This document shows positions 15,446 through 39,866 of a stretch of 64,000 nucleotides of DNA, piece after piece. Source of the DNA: an uncultured Acidobacteriota bacterium. GTDB lineage: Bacteria > Acidobacteriota > Terriglobia > Acidiferrales > UBA7541. Below the pieces are notes generated by a model. That model was not told where the DNA came from and searched no databases. It was given only the letters and a program-made list of their open reading frames with translations. The stretch covers positions 26,011 through 90,010 of the forward strand of contig CAWDQT010000011.1 of assembly GCA_963804535.1 (NCBI GenBank), read 5' to 3'. The position numbers and the translations under genes were made by a program. Numbering within the stretch: position 1 is the first letter of the stretch; every line of letters begins with the position of its first letter.

Positions 15446-16320
15446 ATGCGAATTGGCCAGACGTTCCTGTTTGCAGCAGCCTTTGCACTCGTGCTGGCGG
15501 CTCATCTCGGCGCCCAGGATACGGATGCTGCGCCGCAGGTGCTGGGGCTCAAGGCGCAGTGAATCTCCAAATTGGGGCGGCCCGAACCCCGCGGGCAGCT
15601 TCGCCGCAGGATTTGACCGGCTATTGGGAATCGATCGTCACCGAGTATTGGCGCTACCGTATGGTGATTCCGGACAAAAGCGACTACGTCATCGTTCCCC
15701 TCAATGCCGAGGCACGTAAGATCGCGGACGCCTGGGATCCGGCCAAGGATAAGGCCGAAGGCAATGAATGCAAGGGCTACGGTGCCGCCGCGATCATGCA
15801 GGTTCCGGGCCGGCTGCACATTTATTGGCAGGACGACAATACGCTGCGAATCGATGCCGATTCTGGGACCCAGACGCGTCTGTTGCATTTCGGCGGTTCC
15901 GCACCAGCGAATGCCGCGGCTGACTGGCAGGGATATTCGGTAGCCTTGTGGGAGGGATACGAACCCGATAATCAGCGAAACGGCGGTGGCGGGCCAATAC
16001 GGGATCCCAGAGATCTCGCCAAGGTTGTGCCCAGAGAGGTGGGCGGGGTGGTCCCCGGATATCTCAAGGTTCTCACCACCCATATGCGTCCTGGGTATCT
16101 GCGAAAGAATGGCGTTCCTTATGGTGCGAACGCGACAGTCGAAGAATCTTTCGATCGCTTTTCCGATCCCTATTCTCATGAGAATTGGCTGGTAGTTACG
16201 ACCGTCGTAACGGATCCCCAATACCTCATGGAGCCTTACGTCACCCATGCACACTTCAAGAAGATTGCAGATGGGTCTGGATGGGATCCGACGCCATGCC
16301 GGAGCGATGAGCCCCGCTGA
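15446..16320 (+). CDS. secreted lipocalin-like family protein (divergent member), N-terminal frameshift as sequenced
   Basis: Signal peptide 'MRIGQTFLFAAAFALVLAAHLGA' from ATG 15446 is out of frame with body ORF 15418..16320 (indel(s) about 15540-15605). The body has 'DLTGYWES', a Cys pair and 'DPQYLMEPY'. Confidence 0.7.
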
Positions 16321-16375
16321 TTATTCTTTGAGGGTGCCGTTTTAAGGTTCGGTTTTTCGCAGTGAGGATGAGCCA

Positions 16376-17266
16376 ATGAGATTTGCAAACATCAGCAGCA
16401 GGAAAGTGAAGCGCCTCTGGTTCCCTGTGCTGCTGCTCTTGGTCTTACCGAGCCGGTCGCTCTGGGCGCAGGTCGATCTTACTGGTGAGTGGTCCCCGAG
16501 GATCTATAACGACGGCAGAGACATCGGCGACTACACGGGAATTCCACTGAATGAAGCGGGCCGGCTGAGAGCCGAGAGTTTTCACCCGGAACAGTTTGAT
16601 CTTCCGGAAAATATCTGCAGACCACACGCGTTCGATATTGGATTGCGCGTTGCTCCGGCGCAGCTCTATATCTCCACCGAACTGGATAATGCTACACAAC
16701 TGGTCGTTGACTATCACTTCCACGCGTACTGGTCCGATTTCAGGATTTGGATGGATGGCCGTCCGCACCCGCCCGAGTACGCAGCTCACAAGTTCTCGGG
16801 ATTCTCGACCGGGCATTGGGAAGGCAGCACGCTGGTATTCACAACCGACCATCTTAAGGAAGGGTTCATTACCCGCACGGGAGCGCCACTCACGGAAAAA
16901 GCTACCGTGACCACTCGCGTCAATCGCTACGGCAATGTTTTGACGATGGTTTTTATTATCAATGATCCAGCTTACTTGAGTGAGCCCTACATTCGGGAAT
17001 CCAGTTGGTACTACGATCCGAAGCAGGTGATTCCGGCGTTCCCCTGCGAGCCGTCTCCAGAAGGAACACTAATACCGGCGGGCCAAGTGCCCAGTTTTAT
17101 GCCGGGAAAAAACGACATTCTTACCGACTTCGCTAAGGAGTACGGAATACCTCCCGAAGCTGCGCTAGGCGGCGCGGAAACGACGCATCCCGACTACATC
17201 AAGAAAATGAAAGACATGAAGAAGCTGCCGCGCACCAGCACGAAGCATTTCATACGGCAGGGTTAA
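16376..17266 (+). CDS. secreted lipocalin-like family protein (divergent member)
   Basis: 296 aa with a signal peptide, 'VDLTGEW', 'FSGFSTGHWEGSTLVFTTDHL' and 'INDPAYLSEPY'. Confidence 0.8.
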   Translation: MRFANISSRKVKRLWFPVLLLLVLPSRSLWAQVDLTGEWSPRIYNDGRDIGDYTGIPLNEAGRLRAESFHPEQFDLPENICRPHAFDIGLRVAPAQLYISTELDNATQLVVDYHFHAYWSDFRIWMDGRPHPPEYAAHKFSGFSTGHWEGSTLVFTTDHLKEGFITRTGAPLTEKATVTTRVNRYGNVLTMVFIINDPAYLSEPYIRESSWYYDPKQVIPAFPCEPSPEGTLIPAGQVPSFMPGKNDILTDFAKEYGIPPEAALGGAETTHPDYIKKMKDMKKLPRTSTKHFIRQG

Positions 17267-17271
17267 CTCGG

Positions 17272-18294: not shown

Positions 18295-18479
18295 AAGCAC
18301 TCCCTTTGGACTGCTGACCACGCAAGGCTATACGCCAGCCGCGTTTGGAGTGTCAAGGCCAGTTCTTCGCGGCGCAAATTGGTGGGCGCACGAAAAGTGT
18401 GGCGGCACTGGATTCGTCTGGTGTATAAGCAGCGCCAAGAGCTGAGAATCGAATACTGAGCCATCAGCGGGAGAAGTCG

Positions 18480-19323: not shown

Positions 19324-20370
19324 CTACTGCTTGACGTATTTCTTCAAATCCTTTGGGCCAACCTCCGCGCCATAGATTACGCCTTTGGTGTCCGCGGCAA
19401 CTCCCTCTGCTGCGCTGGTCCCGGTGTAGTTAGGATCAGCGTTCGGGTCAGGAATGAATGCTTTGAGGGAGCCATCTTTGGCGCTTCCGACTCTTATGCC
19501 TCTCTTCCAGGCGCCATGATCTTTGGCAACCGAGCCTGACTCCGAATCGGCCACGTAAATCACATCGTTCTTATCAATGAAGAGCCCGCTGGGCCGGCTG
19601 AACTGCTGCCACTGATCGATGAATTTTCCGTTCTGATCGAAGATCTGAATGCGATTGTTGCCGCGGTCCGCCACAAACAATCGCCCTTTGGAGTCAAAGG
19701 CAAGCGCGTGCGGGATGTTGAGTTCGCCGGGCGCCGATCCCTTTTTTCCCCACGTCATGATGAACTTGCCATCTTTCGAGAATTTCACGATGCGCGCGTT
19801 GCTCTCTCCGCCATGTCCATCCGCGATGAAAATGTCGCCGTTCGTCGCAATGGCAACGGCTGACGGCTTGTTGAATGTATCCTCGCTGTTGCCCGCTACT
19901 CCCGCCTTGCCGAGCGTCATCAAAACTTTTCCTGCCGGGCTGAACTTGAAAACCTGATGGCCCTTGCCATCTTTTCCGTCACCATCGGTAACCCATATGT
20001 TGCCGTCCCGGTCCGCGGTAATTCCGTGAGGAAAGACAAACATCTCCGCGCCGAAGCTGGTCAGAAGTTTGCCGGAAGGATCAAACTCCAAAATCGGCGC
20101 TAGTTTAGAGCCTGCGCAGCTATTGGCGCCGCATCGTTCGGCTACCCAGATATTGCCTTTACGGTCGACCGCTACTCCGGCAGTCGATCCCCACGGCCTG
20201 CCCTCGGGAAGCTTTGCCCAATTCTCGATTGTGCGATAAGGGTCGGGCAGAGAATTCGTGGGCTGAATGTCCGCCGCCGCGACATGTATCCTGCCCGCGG
20301 ATATCGTTCCCAGAATGGCGATGATCGCGCCGATTAGGATCAGGTTAAGTCCGCGCGCGCTTGTTTTCAC
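19324..20370 (-). CDS. NHL-repeat six-bladed beta-propeller (peptidyl-alpha-hydroxyglycine lyase-like), secreted
   Basis: 348 aa with 'HQVFKFSPAGKVLMTLG', 'ARIVKFSKDGKFIMTWG' and 'NNRIQIFDQNGKFIDQW'. Confidence 0.8.
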   Translation of the reverse strand: MKTSARGLNLILIGAIIAILGTISAGRIHVAAADIQPTNSLPDPYRTIENWAKLPEGRPWGSTAGVAVDRKGNIWVAERCGANSCAGSKLAPILEFDPSGKLLTSFGAEMFVFPHGITADRDGNIWVTDGDGKDGKGHQVFKFSPAGKVLMTLGKAGVAGNSEDTFNKPSAVAIATNGDIFIADGHGGESNARIVKFSKDGKFIMTWGKKGSAPGELNIPHALAFDSKGRLFVADRGNNRIQIFDQNGKFIDQWQQFSRPSGLFIDKNDVIYVADSESGSVAKDHGAWKRGIRVGSAKDGSLKAFIPDPNADPNYTGTSAAEGVAADTKGVIYGAEVGPKDLKKYVKQ

Positions 20371-20381: not shown

Positions 20382-21405
20382 TCAGCCGAGAAAATTGCCT
20401 AGTTCAGACAACAGCATTTCCGGTATCTCCTCGGCGATGAAATGGCTGCTCGGAAGCGGTTTACCGGAAGCGTTGGAAGCCCGCTCCTTCCACGTATCGA
20501 GGACGTTGTACTGCCGGTGCATCGCACCTCTTTCGGCCCACAGCGCCAAAACCGGGCAACTGATTTTGCGCTGCAGATCCGCATCATCATGCATCAGGTC
20601 GATGGAAGCGCCCGCGCGGTAGTCCTCGCAAGTCGCGTGAATCATCTCCGGAGTGCGGAAGGATCGGAGATATTCGGCAAAGGCTTCTTTGCTGATCGCG
20701 CCGGGAGGAAGACCATTGAAGCGCGATTTGAGCCAAAACTCGGCGCTATTGCCGATCATCGTTTCCGGGAGCGGCTCCGGTTGGATCAGGAAGAACCAGT
20801 GAAAATTAGATGTGGCGAGTTCCTTGGTGACGGTATGAAAGACCTTGTACGTGGGCACGATATCGAGGACTACGAGCTTTTGCACGCTGTCGGAGTGGTC
20901 GAGAGCCATGCCGATGCGCCACTCGCCCGCCGCGATCATGACCCACCACCAGAAATTTCTGGAATCCGAGGCTGTTCATCACCTCGACCTGGTCTTGAGC
21001 CATGGCCCGTTTTGAATAAGCAGCATGATCTCCGCCACCGGCAGGTTTGCTGCTGTCGCCATACCCGCGAAGATCGGCGGCCACTACGGTGAACTTTTTC
21101 GCAAGTTGTGGCGCAACCTTGCGCCACATGAGGTGCGTTTCCGGATAACCATGCATAAGCAAAAGCGGCGGGCCGCTGCCGGCAGTTACAAAGTTGATGG
21201 TAGCGCCTGAGGTTTGTTTCGTGAGCCGCTTGAAGCCCGGAAAAAAGTCCGCTGTGGCTGCGCTCTGATCCGTTTGTCCCGCCAGCCGATCTGTTTGTTC
21301 CGACAACCGCTCGGTGCGAGCGAGCGCATCCTGAGTCGAAACAATAGCGCCAAGTCCCAATGCAGCTGCTTTCTTGAGAATATCTCGACGGCTGTCATCG
21401 GCCAT
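20382..21405 (-). CDS. Tat-exported alpha/beta hydrolase (haloacetate dehalogenase/epoxide hydrolase-like), frameshifted as sequenced
   Basis: Tat motif '[15 protein letters not shown]' and '[14 protein letters not shown]'. The nucleophile elbow '[13 protein letters not shown]' joins '|[20 protein letters not shown]' if the extra C near 20911 is removed (ORFs 20806..21405 and 20382..20939). Confidence 0.8.
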
Positions 21406-23354: not shown

Positions 23355-23514
23355 TTTGGGGCCTCCAGATATGGAGACAGCCTGCACCCGGATGGAATAT
23401 GCGCATTGTACAGCACTCCTTGGCCGTCTGGTGGCAGTGAATCCTGTTCCATTCGCCGACGGCAATGCTGTACACTCTGCCTACTAGAACTCGCCTTGGA
23501 TGGAGGCAATCGCA

Positions 23515-23994
23515 ATGCGAAATCGGCATATTTTGCCAGTGGTTTTGACACTCGGCCTTTTGGTCGCGTCTGCTCCTCTATTCGCACATCACGCGAATGC
23601 CGTTTTTGATACGACGAAAACCGTTACCGTAAAAGGGGCAGTCACAGAATGGTTTTGGGCCAATCCGCATTGCCTTTTGAGGTTCGACGTAACAGACGAC
23701 TCTGGCCAGGTGGCGCATTGGGTCGGGGAGACTCAGGCTCCGATCAATATGATCGGAAACGGCTGGAGACGAGACTCGTTCAAGCCTGGGGATGAAATTA
23801 CCGTCAGTCTCCGGCCACTCCGGAACGGCAGGCCCGGCGGCAGCATTCAATCGGTCGTCCTTGCCGATGGTAAGACACTAAAGGCGGGAGCAGGAACCGA
23901 GTACGTCAAACCGGGCGGGCCGGCGCCCGACGGGGCTCAACCCGATGGAACTCGACCTGAGGGCACCAACCCCGAGGGGAACTCCAAGCCTTAA
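23515..23994 (+). CDS. small secreted protein, DUF6152-like, copy 2
   Basis: Signal peptide ends 'APLFA|HHANAVFD', with 'WANPHCL', 'WVGE' and 'FKPGDEITVS'. The C-terminal tail has four P(D/E)G pentapeptide repeats. Confidence 0.8.
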   Translation: MRNRHILPVVLTLGLLVASAPLFAHHANAVFDTTKTVTVKGAVTEWFWANPHCLLRFDVTDDSGQVAHWVGETQAPINMIGNGWRRDSFKPGDEITVSLRPLRNGRPGGSIQSVVLADGKTLKAGAGTEYVKPGGPAPDGAQPDGTRPEGTNPEGNSKP

Positions 23995-24074: not shown

Positions 24075-25031
24075 ATGCAAACGGAAAGGCATGTCGCGAT
24101 GTCAACCCGTTTAGGATCTCTCTCAATCACACGTGTGGCGGCATTCGTAATTGCGGCATTGGTCTTCGCGCCTCTCACCCATGCACAGACCGTGGTAATC
24201 CCTTTTACGCGGGAACCAGGAGCGGTCTATGACCCTGACGTTCCGAATGAGAAGCCGGGGCCTGCTCCACGCCGCGATTTGTCCGGCATTTGGGAGCCTG
24301 CCCGCTCGCTGGCGGACGACGTTGGGGCGGATGGGGCGAAAGCAATACCGGCGGATGGAAAGCCGGGCCACGAGCCGCCTTTTACCCCCGAAGGCCAGAA
24401 AGCATACATGGCCACCAAGCCGACCTTCGGCTACAGACAAGTCCCGCCTGTGCAAACAAACGATCCAATGCCTGGATGCGATCCCCAGGGGTTTCCGCGC
24501 GTCGCTCTGCATAACTTCCGAACGAGTTGGATCATCCAGAATCCGAGTAATGTGGTGATTCTGTATGAGTTCAACAAAAAGTGGCGGGTGATCTGGACCG
24601 ACGGGCGCGCGCTCCCCAAGAATGCCGAGGACCCGAGCTGGAGTTATATGCCGGATCTTTCGGAGTCAAGATGGTGGGGATACTCGGTGGGCAAATGGAT
24701 CGATGATTATACGTTTGAAGCCGAGTCGAACGGATTCAACGACAAGACCTGGCTCGATAACGCCGGCCGGCCCCACAGCACCGCTTTGCGCGTGATCGAA
24801 CGCTATCACCGCGTGGACGCAAAACACCTGGAAATGACCATCACAATCGATGACCCGAAGTATTACACGAAGCCCTGGGTCGCTTTGGACCGTTTGTCTT
24901 TGAGATTGCAATCACCCAGCTTCGATTTCTTTGAGCAGGAATGCTCGCCCTCTCAGACCAAGGAATATAACGAATTCTATGGCGAGCCCGCCTCCGAGAA
25001 TTTAGGCAAACCTCCCGACAAAGCCAAGTAG
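24075..25031 (+). CDS. secreted lipocalin-like family protein (short form)
   Basis: 318 aa with 'RRDLSGIWEP', 'FTPEGQ', 'PGCDPQGFP', 'WGYSVGKW', 'GFNDKTWLDNAGRPHSTALRVIERY' and 'DDPKYYTKPW'. Confidence 0.85.
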   Translation: MQTERHVAMSTRLGSLSITRVAAFVIAALVFAPLTHAQTVVIPFTREPGAVYDPDVPNEKPGPAPRRDLSGIWEPARSLADDVGADGAKAIPADGKPGHEPPFTPEGQKAYMATKPTFGYRQVPPVQTNDPMPGCDPQGFPRVALHNFRTSWIIQNPSNVVILYEFNKKWRVIWTDGRALPKNAEDPSWSYMPDLSESRWWGYSVGKWIDDYTFEAESNGFNDKTWLDNAGRPHSTALRVIERYHRVDAKHLEMTITIDDPKYYTKPWVALDRLSLRLQSPSFDFFEQECSPSQTKEYNEFYGEPASENLGKPPDKAK

Positions 25032-25143: not shown

Positions 25144-25950
25144 ATGCCACGCAAGAATGCGCATGCGTTCGGTTCTTTTCGTGAGCGGACTATCGGATTG
25201 ACCGCGCTCTTGATTGCGCTCGCGTCCGCGGTCTCCATGCGTGCGCAAGCGTCTGCCCCGGCCCAAACCGCAACAACAGAGCCTGCACTGCGCCCGCGCG
25301 ACCTTACAGGTCTATGGTTCGGCGGAGTCGGAGGAGGCTTGCGCGTGAAGGGGACGGTGGCTCCGCTGACGCCGGAGGGCCAGACCAGATTCAATGCCAA
25401 TACCGCGGAACTGAAGAGCGACCGTACCATCAGCGCCGATCCCACCTTTCGCTGCGAGCCGCCCGGCTTGCCGCATATCTACGGGATCGGCGGCTATTCG
25501 ATCGAATTCATGCAGACTCCGGCGCGGATCGTGATCTTCTACGAGTCGATACACACATTTCGCACCATCTGGATGGACGGCCGGAAGCCGCCGCAAGATG
25601 CCGATCCAATGTGGATGGGATTTTCCGTGGGACACTGGGACGGAAACGATCTGGTCGTGGATACAACCGGGTTCAACGACAAAACCTGGCTGAATGGAGC
25701 GGGATATCCACACAGTGAAGCGCTTCACATAATCGAGCGCTTCCATCGCGCCGACGTGAAGCACATGCAACTCGATATCACCATCGACGATCCAAAGTCG
25801 TACACGCAGCCTTGGCATATGGGAATCAATTTCACGCTTCAGCCGACATGGGAGTTTGGGGAATCTTTCTGTATTCCCACGAACCAGGAGAATTTCAAAT
25901 CGGAAATCATTGAGCAAAACGACAAGGACAAACCGGCCCCAAAGAAATAG
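25144..25950 (+). CDS. secreted lipocalin-like family protein (short form)
   Basis: 'RDLTGLW', 'LTPEGQ', 'FRCEPPGLP', 'MGFSVGHWDGNDLVVDTTGFNDKTWLNGAGYPHSEALHIIERF' and 'DDPKSYTQPW'. ATG 25144 is preferred (signal peptide). Confidence 0.85.
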   Translation: MPRKNAHAFGSFRERTIGLTALLIALASAVSMRAQASAPAQTATTEPALRPRDLTGLWFGGVGGGLRVKGTVAPLTPEGQTRFNANTAELKSDRTISADPTFRCEPPGLPHIYGIGGYSIEFMQTPARIVIFYESIHTFRTIWMDGRKPPQDADPMWMGFSVGHWDGNDLVVDTTGFNDKTWLNGAGYPHSEALHIIERFHRADVKHMQLDITIDDPKSYTQPWHMGINFTLQPTWEFGESFCIPTNQENFKSEIIEQNDKDKPAPKK

Positions 25951-25991
25951 TCGCTGGTAATTACTTGTTGCGCGCGAGGAGGTTCCGCGAA

Positions 25992-26420
25992 ATGCACTTC
26001 ACAACGAAGACCAGAGTTCTAGCCTGTTGCGCCGTAGCGGCGCTGGCCGCTATTGGCCCCAGGGCCGTCTTCGCCCATCACGGGTCGGCGGCATACGATA
26101 TGTCCAAATCGCTCACGCTCGATGGCACCGTAACGAGCCTGGACTGGAACAATCCGCATTGCCTGCTTCATTTCGACGCCAAGGATGAGAAAGGCGAAGT
26201 GCAGCACTGGACGATCGAACTTTACAATCCCCTGTGGATGACGCGCGCCGGATGGACACGAACCAGCCTGAAAGCCGGCGACCCGATCAACATCACCTTC
26301 CACGGAACCAAGAGCGGCGCGCCGAATGGCTACATTCGTGACGGCGACGGGAAACTGACCTCGAACGGTAAGGAACTCGCGTTTCATCAGGCCGGAGACG
26401 AGCGAACCACGGAACGCTAG
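25992..26420 (+). CDS. small secreted protein, DUF6152-like, copy 3
   Basis: RBS 'gaggagg'. Signal peptide ends 'PRAVFA|HHGSAAYD', with 'WNNPHCL', 'WTIEL' and 'LKAGDPINITF'. Confidence 0.8.
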   Translation: MHFTTKTRVLACCAVAALAAIGPRAVFAHHGSAAYDMSKSLTLDGTVTSLDWNNPHCLLHFDAKDEKGEVQHWTIELYNPLWMTRAGWTRTSLKAGDPINITFHGTKSGAPNGYIRDGDGKLTSNGKELAFHQAGDERTTER

Positions 26421-26487
26421 CGCCGTCCGCCTCCGTCGCGCTACGGATGGCGGCTAACGATTGAGAAACCTTCGAGGCGAGCGCGTC

Positions 26488-27609: not shown

Positions 27610-27627
27610 GTGGAAAGGAAGGTTGCC

Positions 27628-29352: not shown

Positions 29353-30201
29353 ATGGATAAATCGACCCTTTTATTGGCTGCGATCATACTGGCTGTGTTC
29401 GGGGCTTCTGTCGCAGCCGGTCATCCCCACTGGGGCACGTTCACCGGCATCGCCATCATTCTGCTGGCCGCGGGCCTTGGGGCTGGAACGCTACCGCTTC
29501 GCTCACAGGATTTTGTCGAAGAGCGAACAAGCCCCACCCAGAGAATCTCGAACGGCCTGATTACCTTGAGTTCCGCCGCCATCGTTGCTATCTACGCTGC
29601 GGGCTATCACCGAACGAGTCCTGCGGCGCATCGGTTTGATTCGCAGATACCGCAGCAGAGAACGTCCGCTACGATTGCGATCGCGACACCTCCACCCGCT
29701 GCAAACCCAGGCTCCTCCGCGGCTCCGCCGGTTTCGTCTTCTGCGGCTCCTGCGAGCAAGAAAAATACCAAGAGGCCTTCGACTCCGTCTCGCAAAGCGG
29801 CGCCTAGTAGCGCCAGCGATTCAGCAGGGTCATCCTCCGCACCATCGCCGGCGTCAGCGACTAATCCGCCTATCGAAGCGGCCGCGCCGCCTGCGGGCGC
29901 AGCAAAGAGCGCGTACAAAGACGGCGTCTACTTGGGATGGGGCAGTTGCCGTCACGGTGATATCGAAGCATCCGTTACGATTCAGGACGGCAAGATCGCT
30001 CTCGTCGCGATTTCGCAATGCCTGACGCGCTACTCCTGCGGTTGGATCGCGCCAAAAATTCCGGGCGCCGGATTGCCCGACTTACCCTCACAGGTGGTCG
30101 AAAGGCAGGGCCCGAAGGTCGATTACGTCTCAGGAGCCACTGAGAGCAGCTATGCATTCGCTGATGCAGTCGTCGCAGCACTATCCAAAGCCACAGAGTA
30201 A
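29353..30201 (+). CDS. membrane-anchored FMN-binding domain protein (RnfG/NqrC-like) with flavinylation motif
   Basis: Three N-terminal TM helices, a P/S/A-rich linker, then an FMN_bind-like domain ending 'KVDYVSGATESSYAF'. The S-G-A-T motif is at nt 30130-30141. Confidence 0.8.
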   Translation: MDKSTLLLAAIILAVFGASVAAGHPHWGTFTGIAIILLAAGLGAGTLPLRSQDFVEERTSPTQRISNGLITLSSAAIVAIYAAGYHRTSPAAHRFDSQIPQQRTSATIAIATPPPAANPGSSAAPPVSSSAAPASKKNTKRPSTPSRKAAPSSASDSAGSSSAPSPASATNPPIEAAAPPAGAAKSAYKDGVYLGWGSCRHGDIEASVTIQDGKIALVAISQCLTRYSCGWIAPKIPGAGLPDLPSQVVERQGPKVDYVSGATESSYAFADAVVAALSKATE

Positions 30202-31136
30202 CGAGGTCGTCCGCACCGTCGCCCTGATGGGTACCTTTGTGACGATCCACGTCGTGGGCCATGTAGTGGGAGACATGGCCGGTCACAAAGGGGAGACGGA
30301 GAGGACTGAGCGCGAGCGAGCGGTCGACCGCGCGCTTGATTGGTTTTACAAAATTGAGGAATGTTGCACGCGATTCGAGTCCAGCAGCGAAGTGATGCGG
30401 CTCGCGACCCAGGTGGGCGTGCCCGTTCCAGTCAGCACGATCCTTTTCGAAGCGGTGCAATTCGCGTTGGCCGTAGCGGAAGCAACTGAAGGCGCGTTCG
30501 ATCCGACGGTCGGCTACGCCATGGAATCGCTCGGTTTCAATCGCGAATACCGCACCGGTCAAACGATCCGAACTCCTCTCGATTCCAATTTCCCTGTCAG
30601 CTACCGGGATGTTCGCCTCGACGCGGAAGGCCAGACGATCACCTTGCATCGTCCGCTGATTCTTGATCTTGGCGCCGTCGCGAAGGGGTTGGCGGTTGAT
30701 CTCGCCGCACGCGAGCTTCAATCGTTCAAAAATTTTGCGATCAACGCGGGTGGCGATCTCTATCTCGGAGGATGCAATCCCAGTGGCGAGCCATGGTCCG
30801 ATCGGAATCCGCCATCCGCGAAACGATGGGGAATTGATTGATTCGATCCGAGTCTCAAACCGCGCCGTCTGCACCTCAGGCGACTACGAAAAACGGGCGA
30901 ACGACGAGCAAGGCCATCATATTCTCGATCCGCGCACAGGATCGTCAGCCAACGCCGTGGCCAGCGTGACGGTTATCGCACTTACAGCGATGCTGGCCGA
31001 TGCGCTCGCAACGGCCGCTTTCGTTCTGGGTCCGTCTGATGGGATTCAACTATTCCATCGTTTGGGCGTGGATGGGCTGATCATTTCCCCGACCCTGGAA
31101 CTATATGCAACTCGAGGGTTCCGTGAGTACCACTAG
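30152..31136 (+). CDS. apbE: FAD:protein FMN transferase (ApbE), frameshifted as sequenced
   Basis: 'VALMGTFVTI', 'AFDPTVG' and 'LDLGAVAKGLAVD' in ORF 30152..30841. 'IGIRHPR...AVCTSGDYE...HILDPRTG' lies in ORF 30663..31136. They join at 'GEPWS|IGIRHP' if the extra C near 30799 is removed. Confidence 0.82.
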
Positions 31137-31978: not shown

Positions 31979-32455
31979 CTACGAAAATCCGATCCAGCGC
32001 CCGCCGATTCCTACACCCGCCCACAGCAAGACCGAAACCACTGCCACTACTTTGCTCCAAACGGGGCTCACTCGAGTCTCGTCGGTCATGGTCACTTTGC
32101 GTTGGATTGTAAAAGTGAAGACGATCGCCAGAAACAGACACGACATCTTGAACCAAAAGGCGTCATGGTAATAACACTTGATCGCTTCGGAGAGGAAGAG
32201 CAGGCCACCCGTGATGATCATTAATACGAGGCTGCCGACGAGCCAGGGCTGCGCGTTGCGAGTGAGCTCTGCGGCGGACTGCCGCTTCAATCCAAGACCT
32301 AAGAGACGCATGTCCACAACCAACACCGCTCCCCCGATCACTCCCAGGCCAAGGAGGTGAATTGCCTCGATCACCGGAAATAACCAGGATGACTTTCGGA
32401 TCGTTTCGCCGATTCCCGAAGCTTCGCACCACTGAAAGAAGGCCAGCAGCGACAT
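31979..32455 (-). CDS. 4-TM membrane protein, function unknown (DUF6644/CopD-like?)
   Basis: ATG 32455 overlaps the upstream stop (TAATG). 'WLFPVIEAIHLLGLGVIGGAVLVVDMRLLG' is paralogous to the upstream gene. Confidence 0.7.
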   Translation of the reverse strand: MSLLAFFQWCEASGIGETIRKSSWLFPVIEAIHLLGLGVIGGAVLVVDMRLLGLGLKRQSAAELTRNAQPWLVGSLVLMIITGGLLFLSEAIKCYYHDAFWFKMSCLFLAIVFTFTIQRKVTMTDETRVSPVWSKVVAVVSVLLWAGVGIGGRWIGFS

Positions 32456-33120
32456 TAGTGTTCCGCCTGGGTTGGCACGCAACTGGTGAGGAAATTAACG
32501 ATCGCCGGTTGCGGCTGCCTATCGCAGTCGAACCAGTTATACGCGATCATTCTTCCCGAAAGAACGATGCAGACCCATAGCACCAGCGAAAGCGCGCCGG
32601 CAACTCTGGCTGCCTTGGGCGTTACATTATCCACATCCCACGTTGTCACCCGGCGATAAACGCCCGAATGAAAGATCCACACGTTCAGGCCCGCCAGCAA
32701 CAGCATGATCATTTTGGCGCGGAAGAAAATATTCTGATAGGAGCGCAGCGGTATGGCCGAAAACAGGAGCGTTCCACTGATGACCATGACGACGAATCCA
32801 ACTGCGGTCCAAGGCAGCAGGCGCCGGGCAACTTCGGATACGGGCACGCTCTTCATCGTCCAGCCGAGGAGGCGGAAATCGAACATCACGGCCAAGCCGA
32901 AGAATAGGCACAGCGCCCATACATGGACCGATTCGATCAGGTCGTAAGCATAGCGGGATTCGTGCAGGCCGGTGCTCCACGATGAATCGCCCATCCGTTG
33001 GAAGAAATCGAGAAGGGTCCCTCCGATCCCGCCGCCTCCTTCATTACTTTCGTTGGCAGCCGACTGCAATGATGCTGCGTCGAATGGGCCGCTCGCGAAA
33101 AATTGGCCAGGCGCGCCCAT
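32455..33120 (-). CDS. 4-TM membrane protein, paralogue of 31979..32455, function unknown
   Basis: 'YAYDLIESVHVWALCLFFGLAVMFDFRLLG'. It may extend to ATG 33272 (signal-like 'MKRVLIGLFCILTLALC') if an indel lies near 33120. Confidence 0.65.
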   Translation of the reverse strand: MGAPGQFFASGPFDAASLQSAANESNEGGGGIGGTLLDFFQRMGDSSWSTGLHESRYAYDLIESVHVWALCLFFGLAVMFDFRLLGWTMKSVPVSEVARRLLPWTAVGFVVMVISGTLLFSAIPLRSYQNIFFRAKMIMLLLAGLNVWIFHSGVYRRVTTWDVDNVTPKAARVAGALSLVLWVCIVLSGRMIAYNWFDCDRQPQPAIVNFLTSCVPTQAEH

Positions 33121-33403: not shown

Positions 33404-33856
33404 TTATTTCTTGCTCTCCGGCGACAACTCGTATGGCGCGCCGGTTCCGGACGAGCCGAGGAACAGTTTTCGCCCATCAGGGAACGTAAGATCCCTGCCG
33501 TTGGCTCGGTGCGACCCGTCTTTCGCCTGGTATCCATCGACCACCACTTCGGTGCCGGGCAGCAGGGATTCCTTGGTGAACCCGCGCCGGAAAAGGACGT
33601 TCGGCGTGCCCGCTTCGACGGCCCAGTTCTCAACCGTGCCATCGGGCTTCTTCACGTCGACGTGCATCCAGGTGTGGGGATTTACCCATTCCATTTTCGT
33701 GATGGTCCCCTTGAAACTCACCGGTTTATTCGCGTCGAACTCCGCCGCAAACGCGTGGTGCGCCGAGACTGACGCCGCACCTCCCAGGATTGCGAAACCC
33801 ACGACGGCGACTACCGTTGCAATTTTCGTTCGCATCGACTTCAGCCTCCTCCGCAT
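33404..33856 (-). CDS. small secreted protein, DUF6152-like, copy 4
   Basis: Signal peptide ends 'AASVSA|HHAFAAEFD', with 'WVNPHTW', 'WAVEA' and 'LLPGTEVVVDG'. Confidence 0.8.
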   Translation of the reverse strand: MRRRLKSMRTKIATVVAVVGFAILGGAASVSAHHAFAAEFDANKPVSFKGTITKMEWVNPHTWMHVDVKKPDGTVENWAVEAGTPNVLFRRGFTKESLLPGTEVVVDGYQAKDGSHRANGRDLTFPDGRKLFLGSSGTGAPYELSPESKK

Positions 33857-33924: not shown

Positions 33925-34911
33925 CTATTGCTTACCGCCGTACCACTCATAGAACTTATCACCGGACGGCACCTTGCGGGTGATATCGACCGCCATGGTT
34001 TCGCCTTCCCAGTGCTTCACCAACTGCTGCTTGCGAAGACCTCCGTACATGAACTCTTCGACGAATTCATTGCAGCGAAACTCGAGAAGCTGCATGTTCG
34101 GTTCCACGCGGCGATAGAGCGGCATGGCGATCCGCCAGGGCCGCGTAAAAACCTTCGGGTCTTCGATCGTCACTTCGTAACGAATGATATCAGGCGACAT
34201 CAGCGTGAAGCGCTCGGTAAGGTGCAGCGCGTCGCTATGGAAATTGCCGGCGCGGTCAAACCAGCTGCGGTCGTTGAAATTTGTGACGTCGACGACGAGC
34301 GTGTCTCCATCCCAATGTCCGACGGAGTGGCCCATCCAGGTGTCATCGGGCGGCCCTGCGACCTTGTCCAAATGGATCGTGCGCGCCGTATTCGAGAATT
34401 CGTAGGCCATGTGAATCTTGTTCGTGCCTTGCGTGATCTGGAAGGGATAAGGCATGTACATCGCGCGCGGAATGCCCGGCAGGTAACACTTCAGTTCCGG
34501 GTCGCGGTCAATCCAATGTTCCGCGTTGTCTTTCTTCATCAGCAAAGCTTCCGGCTTGTAGGGGATTTGCCCGTCGCCCTGCACCACGCCGAGCGATCCG
34601 GGTACCGCGCCCGCGGCGCCCAGCGCGAGAACCGGAGCTGCGGGCACTCGCGCGTAGTCGTAAGGATAAACGCCCGGCTGCGTGACTGCGGCGGGAAGCG
34701 CCGCATGCGCCTGCAAATCCCAGTTGGCCTCGTTATTGGCTTCCCAGATGCCGCTGAAGTTAGGCTTGCCGCCGACGCGGGCTGGCCGCGCCGCGGGAGC
34801 GGCCGGAGCCTGAGCCGACGTGCGCGTGATGGACACGGAGACGATCGCGCCGACTGCAGCCGCGGCAATGGCGACCGTTATCATCGAACCTGAGAATCGG
34901 CCGCGCATCAT
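33925..34911 (-). CDS. secreted lipocalin-like family protein (short form)
   Basis: 328 aa with 'KPNFSGIWEA', 'LKCYLPGIPR', 'MGHSVGHWDGDTLVVDVTNFNDRSWFDRAGNFHSDALHLTERF' and 'EDPKVFTRPW'. Confidence 0.88.
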   Translation of the reverse strand: MMRGRFSGSMITVAIAAAAVGAIVSVSITRTSAQAPAAPAARPARVGGKPNFSGIWEANNEANWDLQAHAALPAAVTQPGVYPYDYARVPAAPVLALGAAGAVPGSLGVVQGDGQIPYKPEALLMKKDNAEHWIDRDPELKCYLPGIPRAMYMPYPFQITQGTNKIHMAYEFSNTARTIHLDKVAGPPDDTWMGHSVGHWDGDTLVVDVTNFNDRSWFDRAGNFHSDALHLTERFTLMSPDIIRYEVTIEDPKVFTRPWRIAMPLYRRVEPNMQLLEFRCNEFVEEFMYGGLRKQQLVKHWEGETMAVDITRKVPSGDKFYEWYGGKQ

Positions 34912-34935: not shown

Positions 34936-36171
34936 CTACTGCAACGGATCGTCTTCGACGCCCACAAAATCCGTGGCGTTGTCGCTTATTCCCGGGTCGG
35001 GACCTTGTCCCTCCGCAAAGGCGGCCTCTGCCATGCGCTGTCCGCGCATCAAGCCCGGGGAAGCATAGTTTCCTTCGATGCAGCGAGGCTCGTAATAAAT
35101 TCGGTTCTCCTGCTCGCTCTGCCTGGTGAACTCCTGCTTGACGGTCCATGGCCGCGTCCACACGGTCGGATCTTCGATCGTGACCACGTATTCGAGCGTG
35201 TTCGGCCCGGTGCGCGTCCAGCGCTCCACCAGGTGCAGGTTTTCCCGCGAACCCTGGTAATCGGTCTTTGGACTGAAGTTCGTCACGTCGATGACCAGCG
35301 TGTTGCCTTCCCAGTGACCGCGCGAATCGCCATACCACTGGCGGATATTGGCCGGCAAGTGCGGGCTTCCGTTCATAACGATATTTCGCTGCCAGCCTTG
35401 TCCCTGACCGACGTCGTAGAACATCGAGATGCCGCCGGGCGTCTGCACAATGCGGCGGAAGCTGCCGGTCGCGCCTCCGAATTCGGGCAGCCCGCCGGTC
35501 AGGCAGCGGTCCGGCAACGCGCCATCCTCCGGATTATCACGGCGATTCATGCGCGCCGTGTTGTAGCGGGGAGGAGGCTCGGCAAATCGCGGCGAGGGCG
35601 TCGGATCGTATTTCCCGCCGGCACATGCCACCGACTTGTTCTTGCAAGTCTGCGTCGCTTGCAGCAGTGCGAGACGAAATTCCCGCTCGGCGGCGGCCAT
35701 CTTCTGTGCCTCCGGCGTGAGCGGCGGGATTCGGCCGTTGGGCGGATCCACAATCAGCGACGTCCGCGCACCGGTGTGCTTGACGGACATAAACTGCGCG
35801 TTATAGGCGCCGGCGACGTCGAGCTCGGTGCCGCGCTCCACACGCCTGTCCCGGCCGAGCAGCGCCGCTCGTTCTTTGTCCAATTCGGCCCGCTGCGCTT
35901 CGGTGAAAAATTCCTGGTTCGCATACTTGGGAGAGCGCTGCAACGGCGTGTCCGATTCGTCGGTCCAGATGCCTTGCAGATCCGGTTCACCCCACGGCGT
36001 TTTCAGCGCTGGAGCTGTCGCCGACGACTTCGCTGAAGCAGTGTGCGCCGTTGCGGAAGCCGTTTGAGTCTGCGCCGACGTACGCGTGATGGATACGGAA
36101 ATGATCGCGCCGGCCGCAGCCGCGGCAATGGCGAGAGTTATCATGGAGCGTGAAAACCGGTCGCGCATCAT
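34936..36171 (-). CDS. secreted lipocalin-like family protein (long form), tandem copy 2
   Basis: Start ATGATG 36171 after 'aggagg'. 'LKTPWGEPDLQGIW', 'YGDSRGHWEGNTLVIDVTNFSPKTDYQGSRENLHLVERW' and 'EDPTVWTRPW'. It ends 'SDNATDFVGVEDDPLQ'. Confidence 0.88.
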   Translation of the reverse strand: MMRDRFSRSMITLAIAAAAAGAIISVSITRTSAQTQTASATAHTASAKSSATAPALKTPWGEPDLQGIWTDESDTPLQRSPKYANQEFFTEAQRAELDKERAALLGRDRRVERGTELDVAGAYNAQFMSVKHTGARTSLIVDPPNGRIPPLTPEAQKMAAAEREFRLALLQATQTCKNKSVACAGGKYDPTPSPRFAEPPPRYNTARMNRRDNPEDGALPDRCLTGGLPEFGGATGSFRRIVQTPGGISMFYDVGQGQGWQRNIVMNGSPHLPANIRQWYGDSRGHWEGNTLVIDVTNFSPKTDYQGSRENLHLVERWTRTGPNTLEYVVTIEDPTVWTRPWTVKQEFTRQSEQENRIYYEPRCIEGNYASPGLMRGQRMAEAAFAEGQGPDPGISDNATDFVGVEDDPLQ

Positions 36172-36196: not shown

Positions 36197-37402
36197 TCAC
36201 TGCAACGGATCGTCTTCAACGCCGACAAAGTCCGTGGCATTGTCACTTAACGCCGGATCAGGACCTTTCCCCTGCGCAAAGGCGCGGTCTGCCATACGCG
36301 CTGACAGCATCAGCGAGGGGAGAGCATAGTTTCCTTCGACGCAGCGCGGCTCGTAATAAATTTTGTTTTCCTGCTCGCTCTGCTTGGTGAACTCTTGCTT
36401 GACGGTCCACGGCCGCGTCCACACGGTCGGATCTTCGACGGTGACCACGTATTCGAGCGTGGTTGGCCCCTTTCGCGTCCAGCGTTCGACCAGATGCAGG
36501 TTCTCGCGCGAGCCCCGAAAGTCCGTTTTCGGGCTGAAGTTCGAAACGTCGATCACGAGCGTATTGCCTTCCCAATGGCCGCGCGAATCGCCAAACCACT
36601 GGCGGATGCTCGGCGGCAAGTGCGGGCTTCCATTCATGACGATGTTTCGCTGCCAGCCTTGCCCCTGGCCGACATCGTAGAACATCGCGATGCCGCCCGG
36701 CGTCTGCACGATTCGGCGGAAGCTCCCACCGTAGGCTGTTCCAAATTCGGGCAACCCGCCGGTCAGGCAACGGTCCGGCAACGCTCCGTCCTCCGGCCCA
36801 TCGTGGCGATTCATGCGTGCCGTGTTGTAGCGAGCGGGAAGCTCGGCGCGGCGCGTCGAAGGCGTGGGATCGTATTTGCCGCCTTCACAGGCCACCGACT
36901 TGTTCTTGCAGGTTTCGGTAGATTGCAGCAAGGCGAGACGTAACGCCCGGTCCGCAGCGGCAATCTTCTGCGCCTCCGGCGTCAGCGGCGGAATCCGGCC
37001 GTTCGGCGGATCGACAATCAGCGACGTGCGCACGCCCGTGCGCTTGATGGACATAAACGCCGCATTATACGCGCCGGCGACGTCGAGCTCTGTGCCGCGC
37101 TCCACGCGCTTATCGCGCCCGAGCAGCGCCGCTCGCTCTTTATCCAATTCGGCCCGTTGCGCCTCGGTGAAAAATTCCTGGTTCGCATACTTGGCGGGAC
37201 GCTGTAAGGGAGTGTCGGATTCGTCCATCCAAATGCCCTGCAGATCCGGTTCGCCCCACGGCGTTTTCAGCGTTGGGGCTGCCGCCGTCGCGGAAGCCGT
37301 CGGACCCTCTTGCGCGACCGTCACCTGCGCCGGTTTCAAAAACACGAGTGCCGACATGATCGCGGCCAGCGCCACGATGGACTTTAAGAGCCGAGTGCGC
37401 AT
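36197..37402 (-). CDS. secreted lipocalin-like family protein (long form), tandem copy 1
   Basis: 401 aa, roughly 85% identical by eye to 34936..36171, with the same C-terminus 'SDNATDFVGVEDDPLQ'. Confidence 0.88.
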   Translation of the reverse strand: MRTRLLKSIVALAAIMSALVFLKPAQVTVAQEGPTASATAAAPTLKTPWGEPDLQGIWMDESDTPLQRPAKYANQEFFTEAQRAELDKERAALLGRDKRVERGTELDVAGAYNAAFMSIKRTGVRTSLIVDPPNGRIPPLTPEAQKIAAADRALRLALLQSTETCKNKSVACEGGKYDPTPSTRRAELPARYNTARMNRHDGPEDGALPDRCLTGGLPEFGTAYGGSFRRIVQTPGGIAMFYDVGQGQGWQRNIVMNGSPHLPPSIRQWFGDSRGHWEGNTLVIDVSNFSPKTDFRGSRENLHLVERWTRKGPTTLEYVVTVEDPTVWTRPWTVKQEFTKQSEQENKIYYEPRCVEGNYALPSLMLSARMADRAFAQGKGPDPALSDNATDFVGVEDDPLQ

Positions 37403-37586
37403 TTGAGACCTCCCGCTAAACCCAAACGGAGGGGTATTCGAAGACCAGTGCGGTTCGAAACCGCCAGATGTGCGCCATTATCTTCAAGGATCGCGTCACT
37501 GTCCAGAAGATTGAGCGCGCGTGGTTGACGCGACGCTCTTACCTCGCTAACTTATGCGCCGATTACCACAGCAGGAGACCCCGAAT

Positions 37587-38561
37587 ATGCGAATCGGATT
37601 TAACCGCCCGACTGCTTTGATTGCCAGCGCCGCGATTGCCGCCGTGTTTTCTTTGGCTGCCATCCGAATGACCGGCCAGGCGGCCCGCACGACTCAGGCG
37701 ACTCGGCCAGCGCAGGCGACGCGCGCGGCGCGGACTCCTGACGGCCATCCCAACTTGAACGGCATCTGGCAGGCGACTACGACGGCGAATTGGGACCTGC
37801 TGGCTCATACGATGCGTCCGGCCGTCGCGCAGCCCGGTGTATATCCCGATGTGCCCGTGCTGGCCGCTCCAGTTCTGGCGCTCGGCGCGGACGGCGGCGT
37901 TCCGCCCGGCCCCGGCGTCGTGGAAGGCAACGAGATCCCGTACAAGCCCGAAGCCGCGGCGAAAAAGAAAGACAACGCCGAACACTGGCTGGATCGCGAT
38001 CCTGAAGTCCGCTGCTATACGCCCGGAATTCCCCGGGCCATGTACATGCCCTATCCGTTCCGGATCACGCAGGGCACGAACAAAATCGAAATGTCATTCG
38101 AGTTTGCAGGCGCCAGCCGCACCATTCACCTCGATCCTGTTGATCCGCCGCCCGCCGATACCTGGATGGGCCATTCGGTTGGCCACTGGGAAGGCAACAC
38201 GCTGGTCGTCGATGTGAGCCACTTCAACGATCGCACCTGGTTTTCGCGCTCCGGCGATTTCCATAGCGACGCGCTGCACGTCGTCGAGCGCTTTACGCCA
38301 ATTACCCCCGACGCGCTGCGCTACGAGGTCACGATTGAGGATCCGAACGTCTTTACCCGCCCGTGGAAGATGAGCATGGTCCTCTACCGTCAGCTCGAAG
38401 CCAACGCGCAGTTGATGGAATACAAATGCGTTGAGCTGGCGGAGGAAACCTTCCTGGGTCATCTGCGCAAGAAGCAACTCGTGAAGCACTGGGAGGGCGA
38501 CACCATCGTGATCGACGTCACCCGCAAAATCCCGCCGGGCGACAAACTTTACGAACGTTGA
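37587..38561 (+). CDS. secreted lipocalin-like family protein (short form), close paralogue of 33925..34911
   Basis: RBS 'aggaga' before ATG 37587. 'HPNLNGIWQA', 'MGHSVGHWEGNTLVVDVSHFNDRTWFSRSGDFHSDALHVVERF' and 'EDPNVFTRPW'. Confidence 0.88.
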   Translation: MRIGFNRPTALIASAAIAAVFSLAAIRMTGQAARTTQATRPAQATRAARTPDGHPNLNGIWQATTTANWDLLAHTMRPAVAQPGVYPDVPVLAAPVLALGADGGVPPGPGVVEGNEIPYKPEAAAKKKDNAEHWLDRDPEVRCYTPGIPRAMYMPYPFRITQGTNKIEMSFEFAGASRTIHLDPVDPPPADTWMGHSVGHWEGNTLVVDVSHFNDRTWFSRSGDFHSDALHVVERFTPITPDALRYEVTIEDPNVFTRPWKMSMVLYRQLEANAQLMEYKCVELAEETFLGHLRKKQLVKHWEGDTIVIDVTRKIPPGDKLYER

Positions 38562-38651
38562 GAATCGGGAATTTAACACAGAGCGCACAGAGGAACTGAG
38601 TTCACCGAGAAAACGCGGATCAGGGACGCAGGGCAATGGCAAAAAAATGAG

Positions 38652-39866
38652 CTATTGGTCGCCACCGCCGCCGGTCGCATTATCTTCCAGCGCGGGATCA
38701 GGCCCCTCGCCCTCGGCAAACGCCTTCTCCGCCGCTCGCGTGTTGGCGAGCATCCCAAGCAGCCCGTAATTGCCCTCGTGGCACCCGCCTTCGTACACCA
38801 TATTCGGTTTGTCGGCGTTCTTCCGCAGCTCCTGCACAAACGTGAAAGGCTTGACCCAAGTCGTCGGGTCCTCAGCGGTTGTAGTGATCTGCAGCGTTTT
38901 GGCATCGATGCGCTTGTAGCGCTCGGTCAAGTGGAGGTTTTCGCGCGAGCCGCGGAACTCGGTCTCCTGGCTGAAATTCGTGACGTCAACCACCAGCGTA
39001 TCGCCTTCCCATCGCCCGATCGAATCGCCCCAGTATTGGTGAATGTTCTTGGGCAGATGCTGCCGGCCCGTGATGGGGATTGGGCGATTGAAGCCCGTGC
39101 CCTGCCCGATGTCGTAATAGATGTCGACGGAATCAGGGCTCTCGACGATGCGCAACACGCCGCCGAAATTGCCGTAGGGCCGGCCATCCGGCGTCAAAAT
39201 TCCTGCCGGGAGAATCACAGGAAGTCCATTGAGCAGACAGCGCTCGACGCTGCTGCGGTCCTCAGGACCATCCGAGCGATTCATGCGCTCGAGGTTGTAG
39301 TCAGGCGGAGGCGCGTTTCGCAGCGGAGAAATCGGTCCAGGCTTGCCACCCGACGTGCCTTGCAGGAGCGCCTCGAGGTACTCACGCCTCTTGGTGATTC
39401 GCGCCTGCGCTTCCGGAGTGTAGGCAGGCATTTTGCCATCGGGCGGATCGATAATCATCGACGTGCGGCGGCCTACTTCCGTCGGCTTATCGCCGAACCA
39501 GTGCTCGTTGTAAGCGCGCGCGACGTCCTTTTCCGTGCCGCGAATGTCCTTGCCGTTGCTTTCGCGGCTGTCTCGGCCCGGGAGCGCGTCGCGCCTGAGC
39601 AGTTCATCTTCGGCTTTCTGATGCTCGGCCTCGGTCATGAACTCCCGATTGCCAAACTGTGCCGGGCGCTGGAATGGGACGACCGTCGTATTACTCCACG
39701 TGCCTTGCAGGTCCGGAGCGCCCCACGGGGTTTTTAAAGTGGCTGCAGCCGATGAAGTATTCGAAGCCGTTTGGCCGATAACTTTCGTGCTCGTCAAGCC
39801 AACGGCAATTAGTATCGCGGCGCTCAGTGCGATTGCCAACAAATGCGAACGAGCTCGAATTCTCAC
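38652..39866 (-). CDS. secreted lipocalin-like family protein (long form), divergent copy
   Basis: 404 aa with 'LKTPWGAPDLQGTW', 'WGDSIGRWEGDTLVVDVTNFSQETEFRGSRENLHLTERY' and 'EDPTTWVKPF'. Confidence 0.85.
   Translation of the reverse strand: MRIRARSHLLAIALSAAILIAVGLTSTKVIGQTASNTSSAAATLKTPWGAPDLQGTWSNTTVVPFQRPAQFGNREFMTEAEHQKAEDELLRRDALPGRDSRESNGKDIRGTEKDVARAYNEHWFGDKPTEVGRRTSMIIDPPDGKMPAYTPEAQARITKRREYLEALLQGTSGGKPGPISPLRNAPPPDYNLERMNRSDGPEDRSSVERCLLNGLPVILPAGILTPDGRPYGNFGGVLRIVESPDSVDIYYDIGQGTGFNRPIPITGRQHLPKNIHQYWGDSIGRWEGDTLVVDVTNFSQETEFRGSRENLHLTERYKRIDAKTLQITTTAEDPTTWVKPFTFVQELRKNADKPNMVYEGGCHEGNYGLLGMLANTRAAEKAFAEGEGPDPALEDNATGGGGDQ

Follow-up and report, generated by a model that had tools for sequence, protein, structure and literature searches.

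Calycins, among them CRBP1 and other fatty-acid-binding proteins (FABPs), lipocalins, avidins and nitrophorins, are up-and-down beta-barrels with a G-x-W motif on the first strand. Histidine-brace proteins such as CopC (paired with CopD), YcnI (DUF1775, paired with YcnJ) and LPMOs are small and exported, and carry a conserved histidine that becomes residue 1 once the signal peptide has been cleaved (PMC8424229). We analysed a 64,000-nucleotide stretch of DNA (the window) from an uncultured Acidobacteriota bacterium of the order Acidiferrales (GenBank assembly GCA_963804535.1, contig CAWDQT010000011.1, positions 26,011 to 90,010, forward strand), in which nine paralogous genes for exported proteins with a predicted calycin-type barrel lie together with four genes of the Pfam family DUF6152, whose products resemble histidine-brace proteins at their N terminus. 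It is well supported by the genomes examined that the two genes constitute a real, widespread two-gene module. In the literature on DUF6152, DUF6644 and calycin or histidine-brace proteins with an OB fold, we found no characterised counterpart of this module.

The barrel shares with calycins its predicted topology and the G-x-W strand; like FABPs it is modelled with helices inserted behind the first pair of strands, and like lipocalins with a helix at the C terminus. It differs from them in lacking sequence-profile similarity, in the weakness of its structural similarity (template-modelling (TM) score 0.33 by query), in being about twice their size, and in its conserved, probable disulfide, its set of Asp, Glu and Arg residues, its genomic partner DUF6152 and its occasional fusion to an OB domain.

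The likeness of DUF6152 to histidine-brace proteins extends to further conserved His, Glu and Trp residues nearby and to a gene position beside a membrane protein (PMC8424229). Their fold is Ig-like or cupredoxin-type, that of DUF6152 is predicted to be an OB fold; DUF6152 further differs in a pair of adjacent N-terminal histidines and in that its metal site is putative. In contrast to the CopC/CopD pair, the DUF6644 protein encoded beside it shows no similarity to CopD. Small exported OB folds are known from the BOF/YgiW family and from CusF, a metallochaperone. DUF6152 has no sequence match to these proteins (Pfam, E ≤ 0.01) and differs from them in its conserved residues. ZinT/YodA combines a periplasmic calycin-like domain with a His-rich N-terminal segment for metal handling and is not known to be expanded into paralogues. 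There, histidines and barrel occupy one chain, whereas DUF6152 and the barrel are separate and rarely fused, and sequence similarity is absent. Finally, one neighbour in the window (27610-28701) resembles the PAL portion (3FVZ) of peptidylglycine alpha-amidating monooxygenase (PHM-PAL). The CuH site of PHM uses a His-His pair and a third His. Neither DUF6152 nor the barrel has the PHM fold, and NHL neighbours are mostly not directly adjacent to the pair.

Nine paralogous barrel genes in three clusters

ORF (open reading frame) listing and alignment identified nine homologous ORFs between 15.4 and 39.9 kb, grouped in three clusters with four DUF6152 genes. The genes, with DUF6152 copies designated d1 to d4 and barrel family members A to I, are:

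14990-15382 (+): DUF6152 gene d1; signal peptide, then His-His; Pfam PF19649, E = 5.2e-24
15446-16320 (+): family member A; diverges most from the other copies; a frameshift separates signal peptide and barrel; BLASTP to B 8e-13, to D 6.5e-7
16376-17266 (+): family member B; short form with a C-terminal tail; BLASTP match to each of C to I at E ≤ 2e-3
23500-23994 (+): DUF6152 gene d2; PF19649, E = 3.2e-27
24075-25031 (+): family member C; immediately downstream of d2; BLASTP to D 1.6e-42
25144-25950 (+): family member D; modelled copy (AlphaFold2 pLDDT 88.9, predicted calycin-type barrel); 947 database relatives
25965-26420 (+): DUF6152 gene d3; PF19649, E = 3.3e-27; starts 14 bp past member D
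33404-33856 (-): DUF6152 gene d4; PF19649, E = 7.3e-33; modelled copy (AlphaFold2 pLDDT 80.5, predicted OB fold)
33925-34911 (-): family member E; 65-67% identity to H; immediately upstream of d4
34936-36171 (-): family member F; long form with inserts; 79-86% identity to G; likely start MMRDRF
36197-37402 (-): family member G; long form, assigned by alignment and BLASTP
37587-38561 (+): family member H; assigned by alignment and BLASTP
38652-39866 (-): family member I; long form; 45-47% identity to F and G

Pairwise identity among the nine ranges from 25 to 86%. In all-versus-all BLASTP, C to I match one another at E ≤ 4e-9, while A is connected to the family through B and D, at the values listed. 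F and G are recent tandem duplicates; E and H are also counted among the recent duplicates. Searching a profile of the nine against all 718 six-frame window ORFs of at least 50 aa revealed no tenth member at E ≤ 10. An earlier note, made from the sequence letters, had described a nine-fold expansion, and the listing, alignment and BLASTP bear this out. The motifs it quoted are also present (D-L-S/T-G-x-W, C-x-P-x-G-x-P, W-x-G-x-S-x-G-x-W-E-G-x-T-L-V-V-D, E-R, D-P-x-x-Y-T-x-P-W and a C-terminal Cys), as are, in the alignment, its long forms with an insert (F, G and I). These carry two inserts each, the first with IVDPPNGRIPPLTPEAQ (IIDPPDGKMPAYTPEAQ in I) and the second with a C-x6-C pair in F and G.

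The genes that the same note had called His-His proteins are DUF6152: all four pass PF19649 at 84.6-113 bits (Pfam cut-off, 27), with at least one in each cluster and no other Pfam family matched at E ≤ 0.01. Its statement that the barrels always stand next to them holds for A, C, D and E, which directly abut a DUF6152 gene; B, F, G, H and I merely share a cluster with one.

In gene A, the signal peptide MRIGQTFLFAAAFALVLAAHLGAQ lies in a frame that opens at 15446 and reaches a stop at 15560, and the barrel lies in the frame of 15418. Altogether, three genes are apparently frameshifted: member A (15446-15562), an alpha/beta hydrolase (20382-21405), broken into 20382-20939 and 20806-21405 and intact in a close relative (L002, 5247-6269), and ApbE (30152-31136), broken into 30152-30841 and 30663-31136. 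Because the closest relatives are long-read metagenome-assembled genomes, indel errors are as likely as pseudogenes to account for these breaks.

A large family absent from profile databases

None of the nine members, nor a 173-aa protein that had been counted with them, matched Pfam or NCBIfam even at E ≤ 1, and a scan of 69 diverse members at E ≤ 5 gave no recurrent weak Pfam match. PDB sequences were likewise not matched by a 9-sequence or a 101-sequence family profile. Relatives are abundant. A word-indexed search with member D returned 947, every one unnamed or labelled 'hypothetical protein', and HMMER over 1.84 billion representatives of 50%-identity clusters yielded 21,907 matches at E ≤ 1e-3, 13,603 at E ≤ 1e-10 and 3,440 at E ≤ 1e-30. 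The earlier description of the family as uncharacterised therefore stands on the lack of any Pfam, NCBIfam or PDB sequence match and on the source names, and the profile search turned up no characterised enzyme or binding-protein family. The barrel is a new, very large sequence family inside a known fold class. With more than 13,000 such clusters (E ≤ 1e-10) and no Pfam, NCBIfam or PDB entry, it represents an annotation gap; defining it would fill a considerable gap for soil Acidobacteriota, and its members are called 'hypothetical protein' even in cultured Sphingomonadales.

The best 80 loci in species-representative genomes come nearly all from Acidobacteriota metagenome-assembled genomes (Terriglobia, Acidiferrales, Bryobacterales), and several of these genomes contributed five or six separate loci each. 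The family is also found on replicons of cultured Sphingomonadales (Novosphingobium, Sphingobium and Croceibacterium). Two Novosphingobium megaplasmid records are unannotated at the match, and ORF calls in this high-GC DNA are disturbed by shadow ORFs. Many database proteins of approximately 450-530 aa hold two tandem family domains (P0057, P0096, P0241-P0244 and P0247); these are either two-barrel proteins or merged calls of neighbouring paralogues.

Genetic coupling of the barrel to DUF6152

Coupling was quantified by scanning hidden Markov models (HMMs) built from the window sequences across the best 80 related loci, with adjacency defined as a distance within 300 bp. At least one DUF6152 domain was found in 68 of the 80 loci. 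DUF6152 was adjacent to 104 of the 147 family domains, on the same strand in all 104 and upstream in 80, and conversely 101 of the 119 DUF6152 domains had an adjacent family domain. Up to 1 kb from a family domain, DUF6152 reached a density of 472 per Mb, which fell about 30-50-fold beyond that distance in the same loci, to 17 (1-3 kb), 13 (3-6 kb) and 9 per Mb (6-11 kb). Distance matrices of the two partners across the 104 adjacent pairs were strongly correlated (Mantel r = 0.81; highest of 2000 permutations, 0.12). Given this correlation, with both partners diverged to approximately 61%, the pairs were inherited and duplicated as units.

Three proteins join the two domains in one chain. In P0326 (378 aa), the barrel comes after DUF6152 and has no signal peptide of its own, the one signal peptide of the chain preceding DUF6152; the identical protein occurs on contigs of two independent metagenomes. 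A second fusion (L070, 3982-5148) has the same architecture, while P0342 has the reverse order, barrel then DUF6152. The pair also recurs in another phylum, in cultured Sphingomonadales. In Croceibacterium atlanticum the gene order is DUF6152, DUF6152, family member (annotated 'hypothetical') and TonB-dependent receptor; in Novosphingobium humi it is GH39-like, family member, DUF6152 and TetR, divergent from two DUF6644 genes. Both are cultured carriers of the pair and hence tractable hosts. The partnership that had been suspected from the window alone is thus borne out by same-strand adjacency, the 30-50-fold enrichment, co-diversification, the fusions and the second phylum, and co-localisation is clearly present outside the window.

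Predicted barrel fold and conserved residues

AlphaFold2 modelling of member D from a 69-sequence alignment gave a structure with a pLDDT of 88.9 and a pTM of 0.79. The modelled chain runs from the signal peptide through a short first strand with the invariant G-x-W, a helical insert and eight long strands to a C-terminal helix, and DSSP assigns it 10 strands, two short and eight long. Foldseek comparison with the PDB returned only calycins (CRBP1 and other FABP-type proteins, tardigrade SAHS, streptavidin and nitrophorins), with weak matches (best E = 1.4e-3; TM 0.33 when normalised to the query and 0.60 to the target length). The protein is predicted from this model to be a calycin-type antiparallel up-and-down beta-barrel. 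'Lipocalin-like', as the family had been labelled, consequently holds at the level of the fold, through these weak matches, and fails at the level of the family, where no sequence profile matches.

Among 101 diverse members, G56 is invariant and W58 is present in more than 90%; G-x-W is found in all nine window copies. Across 155 divergent representatives, the conserved positions are D53, G56, W58, C104, E134, R140, D145, G159, S161, G163, W165, G167, D184, G187, E198, R199, D216-P217, P223-W224, E240 and C243, of which D53, E134, R140, D145, S161, D184, E198, R199, D216 and E240 form the family-wide set of polar residues. C104 and C243 probably form one disulfide. Judging by the strand topology of the model, the conserved loops (D145/R147, F-N-D...P-H-S and D-P...P-W) would lie at the same end of the barrel.

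A barrel of this type might serve as a non-catalytic, FABP-like carrier of hydrophobic or aromatic molecules, shuttling cargo among TonB-dependent receptors, periplasmic hydrolases and inner-membrane transporters, with DUF6152 as a docking or lid subunit. Such a role would accommodate the calycin-fold model with its helical insert after the first strand, as in FABPs, the expansion and sequence diversity of the family, which are expected for many ligands, the hydrolases, MFS transporters and receptors among the neighbours, and P0342, which retains the OB domain without its histidines. We nonetheless judge it improbable, as three invariant histidines and the cleavage-site geometry of DUF6152, described below, are hard to explain for a mere adaptor, and the many conserved charged residues of the barrel (D, E and R) are unlike those of typical lipid-binding calycins.

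A putative metal site at the N terminus of DUF6152

The AlphaFold2 model of d4 predicts an OB fold for DUF6152. Its nearest solved folds are PriB, SSB and the N-terminal domain of LysRS, with weak scores, and a DUF6152 profile found no match among PDB sequences. H-H and N-P-H are invariant in all 119 DUF6152 copies despite an overall divergence of approximately 61%, with a fixed spacing of 25-26 residues between the two motifs. Glu81 is conserved in 113 and Asp41 in 103 of the 119. The position preceding His-His (-1) is Ala in 112 copies, position -3 is V, A, L, I or T, and a hydrophobic h-region is present in 118. Given this signal-peptide geometry ahead of the invariant H-H, mature DUF6152 should start with His-His.

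A conserved histidine as residue 1 of the mature protein is a metal ligand and the hallmark of histidine-brace copper sites, as in LPMOs, CopC, PmoF and YcnI (PMC8424229). In DUF6152, the candidate metal ligands are His2, the His of N-P-H and Glu81. Both fusions that begin with DUF6152 keep His-His immediately after the signal peptide, whereas the internal domain of P0342 lacks His-His and has N-P-Y in place of N-P-H. This pattern is consistent with a need for a free N terminus. The d4 protein is unusually conserved, with 78-100% identity in its best 120 database clusters, whereas the DUF6152 paralogues of the window share only about 30%. This conservation suggests that d4 forms, with member E and the adjacent pair of DUF6644 genes, a conserved core version of the module.

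The same histidines could point to metal acquisition or trafficking, with DUF6152 as a metallochaperone resembling CopC or YcnI, the barrel binding a metal or metallophore in the manner of ZinT or siderocalin, DUF6644 as the inner-membrane importer and the TonB-dependent receptor as the outer-membrane importer. Beyond the invariant N-terminal His-His and N-P-H, this proposal can draw on ZinT as a calycin-like periplasmic metal binder with a His-rich N terminus, on TonB-type receptors in 16 of 81 loci (directly downstream in Croceibacterium) and on the tandem DUF6644 genes that neighbour DUF6152 in the window as well as in 9 loci and Novosphingobium. It is, however, an unlikely explanation. Nine barrel genes within 25 kb, and several more loci per genome, exceed what metal uptake requires; the barrel has no conserved His, Cys or Met ligands; DUF6644 and the receptor each occur in a minority of loci; and the DUF6644 profile reached an hhalign probability of 0.3% against E. 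coli CopD (YebZ).

A proposed two-subunit periplasmic module

The reading that we favour, with a confidence just short of even, is a two-subunit periplasmic module in which a probably metal-binding OB subunit and a diversifying calycin barrel bind or process small organic molecules. According to this proposal, the nine genes would encode exported calycin-type barrels of approximately 220-370 mature residues with one conserved disulfide, in which the N-terminal G-x-W strand is followed by a helical insert, eight more strands and a C-terminal helix, and each barrel would be the partner subunit of a DUF6152 protein. Signal-peptide cleavage would leave His-His as residues 1-2 of DUF6152. Together with the N-P-H histidine and a conserved strand-3 Glu, these two residues would build a metal site similar to the copper sites with an N-terminal histidine (histidine brace) found in CopC, YcnI and LPMOs. 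The OB subunit would supply an invariant metal centre, and the barrel a pocket and surface that vary among paralogues. The pair may act in the periplasm among exported hydrolases, beta-propellers and TonB-dependent receptors, binding small organic molecules or altering them chemically, and duplication of whole pairs could generate new specificities. What the data above show directly is which genes belong to the family, the folds as predicted, the coupling of the two genes, their fusions and the residues that do not vary. From these we infer that the two proteins form a complex and that metal is bound, as well as which metal it would be and whether the pair is catalytic or binds ligand only.

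Several observations weigh against this proposal. Forty-three of the 147 family domains (approximately 29%) and 12 of the 80 loci have no adjacent DUF6152, and five of the nine window members are not directly paired with one. Co-diversification of neighbouring genes follows from shared inheritance and does not imply contact, and both that contact and metal binding by DUF6152 are putative. The structural matches to calycins are weak (E ≥ 1.4e-3) and the fold assignment depends on a predicted model. Across the 155 representatives, no His, Met or free Cys is conserved throughout the family, so that the barrel is itself no classical copper protein. P0342, lacking the histidines, indicates that the OB domain can also serve without them, and we know of no histidine-brace protein with an OB fold. 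DUF6644, in a comparison with one CopD sequence and hence of limited sensitivity, has no detectable CopD similarity.

For DUF6152, the N-terminal His-His metal site on an OB fold is a first testable functional proposal. If the pair is a duplicating binding or catalytic module, dominant soil bacteria would process organic matter in the periplasm in a previously unnoticed way.

Neighbouring genes and rival roles

The block from 14 to 41 kb is an island of exported proteins between housekeeping flanks (purine synthesis, IleRS, AddA-like helicase). GC content is 0.55-0.62 within the island and 0.53-0.64 outside, with no clear signal of foreign origin. The flanks (1-13000 and 41000-64000) encode AIR-synthase-related proteins, an amidophosphoribosyltransferase-like protein, DUF5131, a GH63/MGH1-like glycosidase, a GDE_N protein, isoleucyl-tRNA synthetase, an AddA-type helicase-nuclease and a GT4 glycosyltransferase. 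Besides the pairs, the island contains an MBL-fold protein, an SGL lactonase-like propeller, two NHL propellers, amidohydrolase_2, an alpha/beta hydrolase, PD40, an SBP_bac_11 binding protein, FMN_bind, ApbE and RnfD-like proteins, two DUF6644 proteins and a DAO oxidoreductase. Neighbours were counted over 81 loci:

NHL propellers: 28 of 81 loci
amidohydrolase_2: 16 of 81 loci
TonB-type receptors (CarboxypepD_reg and OMP_b-brl_4): 16 of 81 loci
Vgb_lyase/SGL-type propellers: 12 of 81 loci
a propeller-like protein of unknown type: 10 of 81 loci
DUF6644: 9 of 81 loci

No neighbour other than DUF6152 is as tightly coupled, median gaps to the nearest pair being 1-3.5 kb. This spacing bears on a further possible role, an inhibitor- or immunity-type pair in which a calycin inhibitor and an OB protein act together, the N-terminal histidines plugging the active-site metal of neighbouring exported metallo-hydrolases. 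Calycin-fold inhibitors of metalloproteases (Serralysin/Inh) reach the catalytic zinc by their N terminus, and many of the neighbours are metal-dependent hydrolases (MBL, amidohydrolase_2, PAL-like NHL and M16 peptidase). Yet no hydrolase family is consistently adjacent, the median gap exceeds 1 kb, same-strand cases are few and nothing but DUF6152 is tightly partnered with the barrel, leaving this role very improbable.

A separate entry is given for the membrane proteins next to d4:

31979-33120 (-): two tandem DUF6644 membrane proteins (Pfam PF20349), downstream of d4 on the same strand

DUF6644, with approximately four transmembrane (TM) helices, is probably an accessory component. Its genes often stand in tandem right beside DUF6152 (for example L083 5020-5995, L031, L015, L064 and L080), sometimes in a DUF6152-DUF6644-DUF6152 arrangement without an intervening barrel gene. 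In twelve copies, K112, W154 and one His of the first TM helix are invariant, and D57 and R59 nearly so. As a relative of CopD, DUF6644 was rejected after hhalign of the 12-sequence profile against E. coli YebZ alone (probability 0.3%). Weak Pfam hints were limited to DUF2214 (E = 0.0015) and NnrS (E = 0.13).

The NHL protein at 27610-28701 (+) matched rat PAL (3FVZ) in phmmer at E = 4e-29 over 210 residues, and its N-terminal half alone did so at 2.2e-22. The alignment runs contiguously along the PAL catalytic core, and the RG, PH, SDGY and DR-N-R motifs are kept, in which we presume the residues to have the functions of their PAL counterparts. A second exported NHL propeller, at 19324-20370 (-), also resembles PAL (3FVZ, E = 2.2e-29). 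PAL-like NHL propellers were dismissed as an obligatory third partner, being rarely adjacent to the pair and with PAL-like motifs in only about one-third of NHL neighbours; they are retained as a lead. Our literature search on bacterial PAL-like proteins found nothing; such an enzyme in a periplasmic hydrolase island may merit separate study.

Downstream on one strand, following d2-C-D-d3, the amidohydrolase, the NHL protein and the 173-aa protein, the segment 29353-31944 encodes an FMN_bind protein, ApbE and a membrane protein resembling NqrB/RnfD. In the FMN_bind protein, a membrane segment at the N terminus and a linker rich in Ala, Pro and Ser accompany the flavinylation motif D-Y-V-S-G-A-T. 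The set looks like an extracytosolic flavinylated electron-transfer module, and was seen in syntenic relatives only, not generally beside pairs. ApbE-dependent flavinylated proteins are known extracytosolic electron carriers (PMC8238504).

These neighbours allow a bolder version of the proposal, which we regard as quite unlikely: a new class of periplasmic metallo-oxygenase, probably copper-dependent and assembled from two small folds that are not those of enzymes, in which a three-His OB centre with the N-terminal amine is served by a barrel that presents the substrate. Electrons would be supplied by carriers of the envelope, the tandem DUF6644 proteins with one invariant His each and, in the window, the flavinylated FMN_bind/ApbE/RnfD-like module, and products would pass to neighbouring PAL-like lyases, amidohydrolases and peptidases. 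If true, bacteria would possess a functional counterpart of the PHM-PAL amidating system that has diversified to accept many substrates, peptides or small molecules.

Regulatory RNAs were absent from Rfam and tRNA scans, and promoter and terminator consensus counts were no greater than in shuffled sequence, so operons were not defined from them. Twin-arginine-type motifs were found in amidohydrolase_2 at 26461-27609 (+; S-R-R-K-F) and in the alpha/beta hydrolase at 20806-21405 (-; S-R-R-D-I-L-K), which suggests that these hydrolases may be exported folded, possibly with a bound metal or cofactor.

The 173-aa protein

The protein encoded at 28771-29292 (+) had been taken for a mini version of the barrel family. 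It has no match to the family HMM at E ≤ 10, and as a truncated member it was ruled out by hhalign, in which the alignment is limited to the signal peptide and the (N/D)(F/L)SGxW strand. No Pfam family matched, and the protein belongs to a separate conserved family of approximately 173 aa. The database holds 257 relatives, and those listed are about 160-183 aa long and 64-99% identical. Features of the protein are a signal peptide, a strand with N-F-S-G-x-W-K, a loop rich in Gly and an invariant block, H-L-H-F-K-K-G-M-N-W-G-R-D.

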